NCBI GenBank assembly: GCA_048885525.1
Contig: JBHLLP010000001.1
Span: 1 to 64,000 of the forward strand
DNA length: 64,000 nt
Direction of reading: 5' to 3'
Source of the DNA: Candidatus Hermodarchaeota archaeon
GTDB lineage: Archaea; Asgardarchaeota; Lokiarchaeia; Sigyniarchaeales; SOKP01
The notes under the pieces were generated by a model that was given only the letters and a program-made list of their open reading frames with translations, did no database searches and was not told the origin of the DNA. Positions 11,375 to 13,141 of the stretch are shown here, piece by piece (position 1 is the first letter of the stretch; each line of letters begins with the position of its first letter). Position numbers and translations under genes: made by a program.

Positions 11375-12117
11375 AAGTAGAAGATCTGAACTTTAGCTAT
11401 AATTCAGGGTTTAAAATTCAAGATGTATCATTTAAACTAGAGGAAAAGGTCATCTGTGGACTTACTGGAAATAATGGTTCAGGGAAAACAACTTTATTAA
11501 AATTAATAGTAGGGTTACTAAAACCTCAATCTGGAAACGTCAAGATTTTTAAAAATGTGCTTACAAGAGATAAAAAAAAATTATGGGAGATTAGAAAATC
11601 AATTGGTTTTTTATTCCAAAATCCCGATAACCAATTATTTGCACCTACTATTGAAGAAGATATTAGTTTTGGAGCAAGAAACTTGAGACTTGAAGAGGAA
11701 GAAGTTAAAAAAAGAGTCAACTGGGCGTTAGACGCAGTAGGCTTATCAGAATTTCGAGAATACTCACCATTTAACCTTTCTTGGGGTCAAAAAAAAAGAG
11801 CAGCTTTAGCGGGTTTGCTAGTAATGAAACCTAAATTACTTATTTTGGATGAACCTTTTGCGAATCTAGACTTTAAATCAATATACAATCATCTTAAAAT
11901 TTTAGAAAAGTTGAGAAGAGAGAATAAAATAACAATACTCTTTACATCTCACAATTTGTTTTTTGTTGAGCATTGGGCTAAATATATGTTATTTTTGGAT
12001 GAAGGCAAAATTATTTTTGAGGGAAGCCCCAATGCTGGACTAGAAAATTCAAAGGTAAAGAACTTAATTGGATCATATGATAATATTTTCTCATTAATAA
12101 AAAAAAGTCAATTGTAA
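11359..12117 (+). CDS. ECF transporter ATPase (NikO/CbiO); true start lies upstream of the ORF-track start
   Basis: Walker A GNNGSGKTT is in frame upstream of 11557; FQNPDNQLF, LSWGQKKR, LDEP; most plausible start ATT at 11359 after GGGTG. Confidence 0.85.
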   Translation: MNFAVEVEDLNFSYNSGFKIQDVSFKLEEKVICGLTGNNGSGKTTLLKLIVGLLKPQSGNVKIFKNVLTRDKKKLWEIRKSIGFLFQNPDNQLFAPTIEEDISFGARNLRLEEEEVKKRVNWALDAVGLSEFREYSPFNLSWGQKKRAALAGLLVMKPKLLILDEPFANLDFKSIYNHLKILEKLRRENKITILFTSHNLFFVEHWAKYMLFLDEGKIIFEGSPNAGLENSKVKNLIGSYDNIFSLIKKSQL

Positions 12118-12183
12118 ATTCAATTCAGTGTTTTCTAATAATTTAATTTTAAATTTATCTAATCTATACAGTAATAAAATTTA

Positions 12184-12580
12184 GTCTAATAACCTTAGAC
12201 ATCTAGTGATTATGTATTTCCATCAAATTAAAGGTTGTTTTACTATTCTTAACTTCGAACTATTTATTTTCTAAATAATTATGTCGCCTGAAACACTAAC
12301 ACAGCCTTTTTCATCTCAAGGAAATATCCCCTTTAAATCAAAGATGTTCTCTCATGTCAGGCATTTTGAATGTTGGGACATAATCATGTCGCAAATCTGG
12401 GTTGCTGACTCTACTTTCATTGCGATGGGTTTTACCCTTGCTCTGTAAAGAGCCCGTATTAGTTTTTGCATTTATTGATTAATAAATTCAGGATATAAGC
12501 ATATTTTTGCGCATCATATTCATTTTTTAGTCGTATGAGCCCTCGATAATGCTCAATGCTCCATCATAATTTTCCCACTA
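12184..12580 (-). ncRNA. Candidate structured non-coding RNA (~400 nt), family unknown
   Basis: No long ORF, less AT-rich than flanks, more than 8 nested helices including 5'/3' end pairing, G-U pairs favour the minus strand, TTATAT element ~20-25 nt upstream. Confidence 0.5.
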
Positions 12581-12670
12581 TTGTAATAGCATATTGAAAA
12601 TATAAGTTTTATTATTCTTCTTCTCTTAATGAATTAGAGAAATTAAAAAACCTGTTAAGTGGAATTTTTG

Positions 12671-13141
12671 CTATAACATACCAAAAGTATCGGACTTAAA
12701 TAATTCCTTTACTTCCTTACTAATTTCTGTTTGATCAGCCTTTAAATATCTATCTAATATAGTTTTAAGCATAGGGCCCCATTTTTTCATTGTTACTCTA
12801 ATAAAACCAATTTGAGCATTTTGATCTGTTACTACACACAACACTCCTTTACCAACTTTCATAGAAAAAATCATACCTTCAAGATATTCTGTTATTTGAA
12901 GATTAATTGATCCATACCCTAAAATATGTCCTTGTTCCTCGCCTGCAACAAAAACAGCACTACCTATAGCACCAATTTTCTCTACCGATATTCCATGATG
13001 ACCAGAAAATTTAAATTTAGATTGACTTAAAATAGTTATTCCTGTATCATCAGTTAAAAGAGCATATTTTAATCCAGGAGCACTATTGATAATTGAAGTC
13101 AAAATCTTTTTTAATTTAAGCTCATCCTCGGAATAACTCAA
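12671..13141 (-). CDS. Roadblock/LC7 (MglB-like) domain protein
   Basis: GLKYALLTDDTGITI..VEKIGAI..G..L..GVLCVVT..AQIGFI pattern. Confidence 0.8.
   Translation of the reverse strand: MSYSEDELKLKKILTSIINSAPGLKYALLTDDTGITILSQSKFKFSGHHGISVEKIGAIGSAVFVAGEEQGHILGYGSINLQITEYLEGMIFSMKVGKGVLCVVTDQNAQIGFIRVTMKKWGPMLKTILDRYLKADQTEISKEVKELFKSDTFGML

Follow-up and report, generated by a model that had tools for sequence, protein, structure and literature searches.

Between two convergent protein-coding genes of the source genome (G000), the minus strand carries a gene for a 311-nt RNA (12269–12579). The RNA's most likely identity is that of a divergent three-hairpin box H/ACA guide for rRNA pseudouridylation, i.e., a representative of a known kind of RNA that was missed by databases in Asgard archaea. 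While we regard this class assignment as likely, our confidence that 12269–12579 is a genuine RNA gene is much higher. All coordinates are plus-strand positions of the window, by which we mean the whole 64,000-nt stretch of DNA that was analysed. Annotated H/ACA guide RNAs are almost lacking for Asgard archaea, and the Rfam models derived from Pyrococcus and Methanocaldococcus miss this RNA completely. A covariance model of the full-length RNA (R1) detects one copy in most Lokiarchaeia, and two models of its third, 3' module (R2 and R3) trace this module to other Asgard families and, as a stand-alone RNA, to many Thermoproteota.

The RNA gene, its promoter and its genomic context

The RNA locus is a 553-nt gap, flanked by an ABC-type ATPase gene on the plus strand ending at 12117 and by a roadblock/LC7-type gene on the minus strand at 12671–13141. 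The first-pass annotation had placed a structured RNA at 12184–12605; a structured RNA is indeed present, but several of the helices and the boundaries were wrong, as the match of R1 (293 bits, model positions 1–313) covers 12269–12579. The RNA's 3' end is a U-rich stretch (UUAUUU), and a TATA-like promoter box, CTTATATTTT, is found on the minus strand at 12597–12606, approximately 25 nt upstream of the RNA 5' end with its conserved GGGA. Four positions of this box (T8, T9, T11, and A12) are invariant in a 30-sequence genus alignment (A1), in agreement with an earlier guess of a promoter element AAAACTTATAT at approximately 12600–12610, and TTTATA-type boxes occur at equal distance in homologues from other families. 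The minus strand, which had been preferred already, is favoured by the energy of the consensus fold (−85 kcal/mol compared to −64 kcal/mol for the plus strand), by the number of G-U cells in the same pairs (129 on minus compared to 29 on plus), and by the conserved TATA box.

A blastn search with the gap revealed that the region of approximately 12270–12610 is present once in 50 of the 54 genomes of the genus with 67–92% identity, and the genus-level alignment shows many indels of 1–2 nt and obvious compensatory changes. R1, the covariance model built from this alignment, finds exactly one full-length copy per genome in 124/151 genomes of the order. At the level of the family 119 of 131 genomes are positive, with all 13 sampled genera represented, and copies exist in two further families of the class. 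The expectation that the minus strand encodes a discrete non-coding RNA was supported. Comparison with Rfam, proposed as a check on novelty, yielded no family that detects the window, neither at gathering thresholds nor at E ≤ 10, and in the literature on Asgard non-coding RNAs or K-turn RNAs we found nothing specific.

Two alternatives, a small protein-coding gene and a cis-acting element of the neighbouring roadblock gene (3' UTR, terminator or antisense), would be suggested by the position of the RNA gene, which adjoins the roadblock 3' end in the majority of the genomes of families f1 and f2, and by two ORFs in G000, one of 55 aa on the plus and one of 39 aa on the minus strand. We consider such explanations extremely improbable. 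In most relatives, the RNA gene lies co-directionally behind a small gene and converges on the roadblock gene, while the G000 group has it inverted in place; moreover, it occurs in lineages without a roadblock neighbour (L074, L075), the neighbour being missing in family f4. Because the gene has its own conserved promoter and its orientation to the roadblock gene differs among relatives, the RNA is to be seen as an autonomous gene and not as a UTR, and the idea of a structured 3' element of the roadblock gene was abandoned. There is also no coding signal in the alignment: most gap runs (254 of 311) have lengths that are not divisible by three, variable columns are distributed evenly over the three codon positions, and the longest open frame switches frame and strand between species.

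Next to the RNA gene, G000 contains a gene remnant, consisting of conserved DNA at 12131–12235 and a 22-aa ORF at 12206–12274 (MIMYFHQIKG...). The region 12131–12274 corresponds to the upstream region and the N-terminus of a gene of approximately 150 aa (MHLVLTYFxxIKGP...), which is situated between the ABC ATPase gene and the RNA gene in most relatives and which is largely deleted in G000. The hairpin at 12184–12200, formerly counted as part of the structure, lies outside the RNA gene. Two housekeeping RNAs were considered and rejected as identities of the RNA. RNase P RNA is encoded on contig C49, and no RNase P or MRP model matches the window at E ≤ 10. A divergent SRP RNA was suspected because RF01857 gives no match in G000; relatives, however, carry their SRP RNA at other loci, and the G000 gene is split over two contig ends, C46:1–257 and C52:23518–23649 (L092, L093), which explains why RF01857 reports no SRP RNA in this 99%-complete genome.

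Covarying helices and the three modules

Folded as a single sequence, the flagged stretch does not stand out (z = −0.9 for its plus strand, −1.75 for its minus strand), meaning that the attribute "highly structured" could not be demonstrated from the single sequence, and the case for a structure is therefore built on the comparison with relatives rather than on free energy. A hand-built structure of 61 pairs was evaluated on a class-wide alignment of 24 sequences (A6). In this alignment, 85.4% of the cells pair compared to 74.7% in shuffled alignments and 36–44% after sliding the partners, and 44 of the 61 pairs show changes on both sides; the pairing and covariation values were reached by none of 500 shuffles.

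Of the helices listed in the first-pass annotation, 12286–12291/12357–12362, which forms the base of module 3, 12312–12316/12342–12346, the hairpin AAGGGG..UUCCUU, and the hairpin 12427–12437 are backed by conservation or covariation. The supposed end pairing of 12204–12214 with 12565–12580, the helices 12278–12285/12377–12384 and 12389–12394/12420–12425, and the hairpins 12440–12453, 12470–12487, and 12536–12555 lack support in relatives, as they exist in G000 or its close relatives only or are displaced by covarying alternatives. A tmRNA-like resume context and a T-loop-like motif that had been pointed out as curiosities received no support either.

The RNA is composed of three modules (all on the minus strand). 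In each of them, a lower stem leads through an internal loop to an upper stem and a K-turn or K-loop, and an ANA box follows downstream. Modules 1 and 2 are closed by helix P1, formed by GGGA at 12573–12576 and UCCC at 12375–12378 (A6 pairs 5–8 with 259–262), which is 88% paired with three of four pairs changed on both sides. Within P1, a basal K-turn encloses module 1. Its 5' strand (12561–12572) comprises the C-stem AAAU, a 3-nt bulge, GA, and UGG, which together contain the box C-like AUGAUGG, and its 3' strand (12485–12493) reads CC, U, GA, AAUU and contains the box D-like CUGA. The GA of the 5' strand (G15 A16) is invariant in A6 and that of the 3' strand (G91 A92) nearly so; the C-stem covaries (pairs 10–12 with 108–110, 3/3 double changes), and the pairs 19–20 with 102–103 are 94% paired. 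The C/D-like motifs UGAUG..CUGA that had been noted earlier correspond to a real conserved K-turn.

Module 1 (12494–12553) has the lower stem AGCAU/AUGCU, a 7-bp upper stem, and a K-loop (UGA...AUGA), and its helices covary. Its pocket is formed by the 5' strand UAUCGAGG and the 3' strand GCAAAAAU, and its ANA box (12494–12496) is AUA in G000 and a few others and ACA in most relatives; its distance to the upper stem is 14 nt for most of the 24 sequences and 12 or 15 nt for three of them. Module 2 (12381–12481), which is H/ACA-like, is bounded by the outer helix UAAUCA/UGAUUA and has the lower stem GCAAA/UUUGC, the upper stem GGCUC/GAGUC, a K-turn (GC-AAU-GA), and ACA at 12387–12389, 14–18 nt from the upper stem. 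Helices 7–11 of A6, which represent this module, covary, and the lower stem covaries with GCAAA/UUUGC in one case and CCUG/CAGG in another. Module 3 (12282–12362; A6 helices 13–16) contains the lower stem GCCUGACAU/GUGUUUCAGGC, an upper stem, a K-turn (GA...UGA), and an apical hairpin. Its conserved pocket strands are GAGAGAAC and GUUA, and the distance from GUUA to ACA (12282–12284) is 16 nt in almost every sequence. The pocket ends AAC and GUU can pair together in every lineage examined.

This three-module anatomy fits the definition of the archaeal box H/ACA motif given by Muller et al. (2008; PMC2377435), whose descriptor has two helices flanking an internal loop of 5–11 nt per strand. The internal loops measure 8 + 8 nt in module 1, approximately 7–10 + 10–11 nt in module 2, and 8 + 4 nt in module 3, which is borderline, resulting in a range of 4–11 nt per strand across the three modules. 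Invariant GA/GA elements of the K-turn or K-loop are present in all three, located 7 bp above the pocket in module 1, 6 bp in module 3, and approximately 9–10 layers in module 2, where 5–6 would be canonical. Module 3 possesses a lower stem of 9 bp with a 2-nt bulge, whereas in modules 1 and 2 only 5–6 bp precede the ANA box and the helix resumes after it; a canonical archaeal H/ACA lower stem has at least 7 and about 9 bp. Because further helices follow them, the ANA boxes are not single-stranded tails: clamp helices beyond the boxes are UAAUCA/UGAUUA, P1, and, in most relatives, a terminal helix. ANA boxes that are buried between helices, together with a C/D-like K-turn around an H/ACA module, constitute a structural variant.

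The proposed guide target of module 1 and the relation to known RNAs

As G000 contains no assembled 16S or 23S rRNA gene, rRNA of other genomes was used for target prediction, namely the 23S rRNA of a Lokiarchaeial genome from another family (G156) plus 16S rRNA. A guide was required to pair with its pocket on both sides of an unpaired 5'-UN-3'. The best site for the pocket of module 1 (its 5' strand and the 3' strand beginning with GCAA) is nt 2706 of the G156 23S rRNA, GGCUUGC[UU]CCUCGAUGUCGG, with 4–5 + 8 contiguous pairs (12–13 in total) flanking the unpaired UU. This site is the top or joint-top match for 23 of 24 sequences, and its score was reached by shuffled guides in only 0–5 of 300 trials. 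We take nt 2706 to lie at the 3' end of helix 89, where it enters the peptidyl-transferase central loop. The reading hence leads to a concrete prediction, a pseudouridine beside the peptidyl-transferase loop of Lokiarchaeial 23S rRNA, expected at the first U of GC[UU]CCUCGAUG.

For modules 2 and 3, no match above shuffled guides was obtained in a search of one 23S, three full 16S rRNAs, and the whole G000 assembly; the best site of module 3, UAAC[UC]UCUU in the 3' strand of helix 69, has 4 + 4 pairs, which is chance level. Less constrained approaches were of little use, as duplex folding against the whole 23S rRNA gave meaningless full-length duplexes and an unconstrained bipartite scan gave many G-U-rich chance matches. 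A 9-nt complement to helix 89 of the GGGCUCUU type, which might have indicated a simple antisense RNA to rRNA, was treated as chance and rejected, since it lies inside a covarying helix, is missing where module 2 is missing, and offers no U at the required position.

In the proposed mechanism, the 311-nt H/ACA RNA would be transcribed from its own TATA promoter and would assemble with L7Ae, Cbf5, Nop10, and Gar1, with the K-turn or K-loop of each module as the predicted site for L7Ae and the ANA box as that for the PUA domain of Cbf5. Module 1 would then direct isomerisation of the uridine in 23S rRNA at the site described above. Genes for two of these partners were identified in G000, namely Cbf5 (427 bits, exceeding the curated cut-off) and Nop10 (with 56 bits). 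What the data establish are the gene and its strand, its conservation and secondary structure, the spacing of the ANA boxes, and the significance of the rRNA match of module 1; the protein binding, the formation of the pseudouridine, and the orthology with Pab40 discussed below are inferred. The anatomy of an archaeal multi-hairpin box H/ACA guide sRNA with a significant 23S match for one pocket also speaks against a new class of non-coding RNA, as had been suggested initially.

Among the closest known systems is the RNA described as HgcG, Pab40, Pf7 or Afu4 (RF00064; PMC2377435), which likewise consists of three H/ACA modules with K-turn or K-loop and ANA box in approximately 230–310 nt. Using helix 69 to calibrate the numbering (G156 nt 2130 equals P. 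abyssi nt 2016), nt 2706 corresponds to approximately P. abyssi nt 2592. Motif 1 of Pab40 guides pseudouridine 2588 in P. abyssi, which, like the helix 69 sites, is a conserved pseudouridylation site in eukaryotes (PMC2377435). Both module 1 and Pab40 motif 1 are accordingly directed at 23S domain V beside the peptidyl-transferase loop, approximately 4 nt apart after offset correction, and the site of module 1 is probably the one guided by motif 1 of Pyrococcus Pab40 (Pf7, Afu4, HgcG). The 3' guide GUUA of module 3 matches GUGUUA of the last HgcG hairpin, and a stand-alone homologue of module 3 gives the best match to the RF00064 model, although below threshold. In contrast, the 5' pocket of module 3 is GAGAGA(A/G)C where motif 3 of Pab40 has GGUUAG, so that the helix 69 target of this motif is not reproduced; the chance-level 4 + 4 match of module 3 sits 6 nt further 3' in helix 69 than the Pab40 motif 3 target. 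Further differences to Pab40 are the clamps beyond the ANA boxes, including the basal K-turn, and the short lower stems of modules 1 and 2. Even at E ≤ 10, the window is not detected by RF00064, and a Thermoproteota homologue of module 3 reaches 25 bits, the gathering threshold being 77 bits. The three-module RNA is probably related to Pab40, Pf7, Afu4, and HgcG, and because this relationship is plausible but distant we file it under the H/ACA kind and not as a member of RF00064. With the eukaryotic H/ACA snoRNAs for conserved pseudouridines of the large-subunit rRNA it shares the bipartite pocket around an unpaired UN and an ANA/ACA box 14–16 nt away, but these are built from two hairpins, carry H and ACA boxes, and lack K-turns.

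Several features speak against the guide reading. The window gives no match to any Rfam H/ACA model at E ≤ 10, behind each ANA box there is a helix or K-turn where a single-stranded box at the 3' end or in a hinge would be expected, and the pocket strands of module 3 are partly self-complementary and almost invariant across two phyla, which would be unusual for a simple guide. The short lower stems of modules 1 and 2, the high K-turn of module 2, and the lack of a better-than-shuffled target for modules 2 and 3 in the sequences searched count against it, too. Alternatively, the RNA could be an RNP scaffold of H/ACA-like and C/D-like parts acting mainly in a non-guide role, e.g., as a chaperone of rRNA processing or folding like snR30/U17 or U3, in which the invariant self-paired loop of module 3 (GAGAG opposite A) would be a docking site for protein or rRNA. 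The absence of a significant canonical target for modules 2 and 3 in the rRNAs and the assembly searched, the near-invariant loop of module 3 in Asgard archaea and Thermoproteota, the AAC/GUU strands that remain pairable throughout, and the clamp helices and box C/D-like K-turn around the modules are in line with this explanation. However, module 1 shows canonical guide behaviour with a significant conserved target, the ANA spacing is canonical in all three modules, and orphan H/ACA motifs are reported in Pyrococcus as well (PMC4652768); we therefore judge a scaffold to be unlikely. Equally unlikely is its most far-reaching form, a clamped three-module particle with a C/D-type K-turn enclosing an H/ACA module, whose module 3, with the self-paired invariant loop GAGAG/GUUAGUG common to Asgard archaea and Thermoproteota, would serve a non-guide role in ribosome biogenesis and represent a prokaryotic counterpart of snR30/U17.

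Even less probable, to a degree that we give it little credence, is an atypical long box C/D sRNA acting with Nop5 and fibrillarin. As in archaeal C/D RNAs and composite H/ACA-C/D transcripts, the RNA has a K-turn formed from RUGAUGR near the 5' end and CUGA. The box order C, D', C', D is present, with AUGAUGG and CUGA at the base and a D'/C'-like AUGA...AUGAUUA at the 5' arm's apex. The GA dinucleotides do not vary, and an A-U instead of the usual C-G pair between D' and C' would be consistent with a K-loop. Yet the spacers of 25–26 nt, where C/D sRNAs have guide spacers of 12 nt, pair together with covariation, the 7-nt 23S complement does not fall five nucleotides upstream of the D' box, and there is no evidence of a methylation guide. 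The 5' arm fits the H/ACA descriptor: its ANA box lies at 14 nt, and its bipartite target, which is significant, flanks UN. By this spacing and target, the box C/D or U3-like reading of the arm was superseded. A mixed particle has precedent, as in Pyrococcus a single transcript carries both H/ACA and C/D motifs (Pab21 with snoR9, RF00065; PMC2377435, PMC4652768). There the motifs lie side by side, whereas here the C/D-like K-turn encloses H/ACA module 1. The guide reading, with module 1 as the H/ACA module directed at 23S rRNA, remains the one that we prefer.

Distribution of module 3 beyond the class

The reach of module 3 was followed with R2, a covariance model of the 3' module alone, and with R3, a broader model from a cross-phylum alignment (A8) in which 78% of cells pair compared to 63% in shuffled alignments. 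With R2, 53 of the 151 genomes sampled from the whole Asgard phylum yielded one full-length copy each, nine non-Lokiarchaeial families included. These homologues retain CACGAGAGAAC, UGA, GUUAGUG, GG..ACA, and a covarying terminal helix, and most of them carry module 1, too. In one Asgard family (G255; L129, G255:C13, upstream of 1501), the RNA is shortened to approximately 205 nt and has no module 2; module 1 is joined directly to module 3, which is surrounded by a different terminal helix, GCGCCG/CGGCGC.

When all species genomes were scanned with a pattern, matches appeared in Promethearchaeota, in contigs labelled as Heimdall-, Odin-, and Thorarchaeota, and, unexpectedly, in many Bathyarchaeia, the latter being confirmed by R2. 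R3 detects one copy in 53/151 genomes of the phylum to which a Bathyarchaeia genome belongs. In several copies inspected from Bathyarchaeia and other Thermoproteota, module 3 stands alone behind its own TATA box. One stand-alone Thermoproteota copy matches Rfam HgcG with 25 bits (E-values of 3e-5 and 1e-3 when 401 nt and 13 kb were searched, respectively), aligning with the last hairpin of the model and having GUGUUA and the ACA box in common. Apart from a weak match of the same copy to HgcE, this is the only Rfam signal that the analysis gave; a GC-rich Asgard copy shows only a local 11-bit similarity to HgcE. Two archaeal phyla appear to share at least one conserved H/ACA hairpin, which bears on the age of the set of rRNA pseudouridines shared by archaea and eukaryotes.

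Two full-length matches to module 3 come from contigs with bacterial labels, JAJPJY010000098.1 ("bacterium"; L142) with 31 bits and DASPWZ010000011.1 ("Dormiibacterota"; L150) with 27 bits. Both sequences are nearly identical to Bathyarchaeia copies, and the contigs are probably mis-binned archaeal ones.

At one Thermoproteota locus (L270; G302:C1:1385212–1389323), a second structured-looking RNA of approximately 170 nt lies directly upstream of the stand-alone H/ACA hairpin, approximately 30–200 nt upstream of the module-3-like RNA and approximately 18 kb from the 16S gene. This second RNA may represent the remaining modules of the Asgard RNA. It displays a GCGAUGA element, a long-range pairing of CAGCAGGAC with GUCCUGCUG, a UUUU end, and its own TATA-like box.
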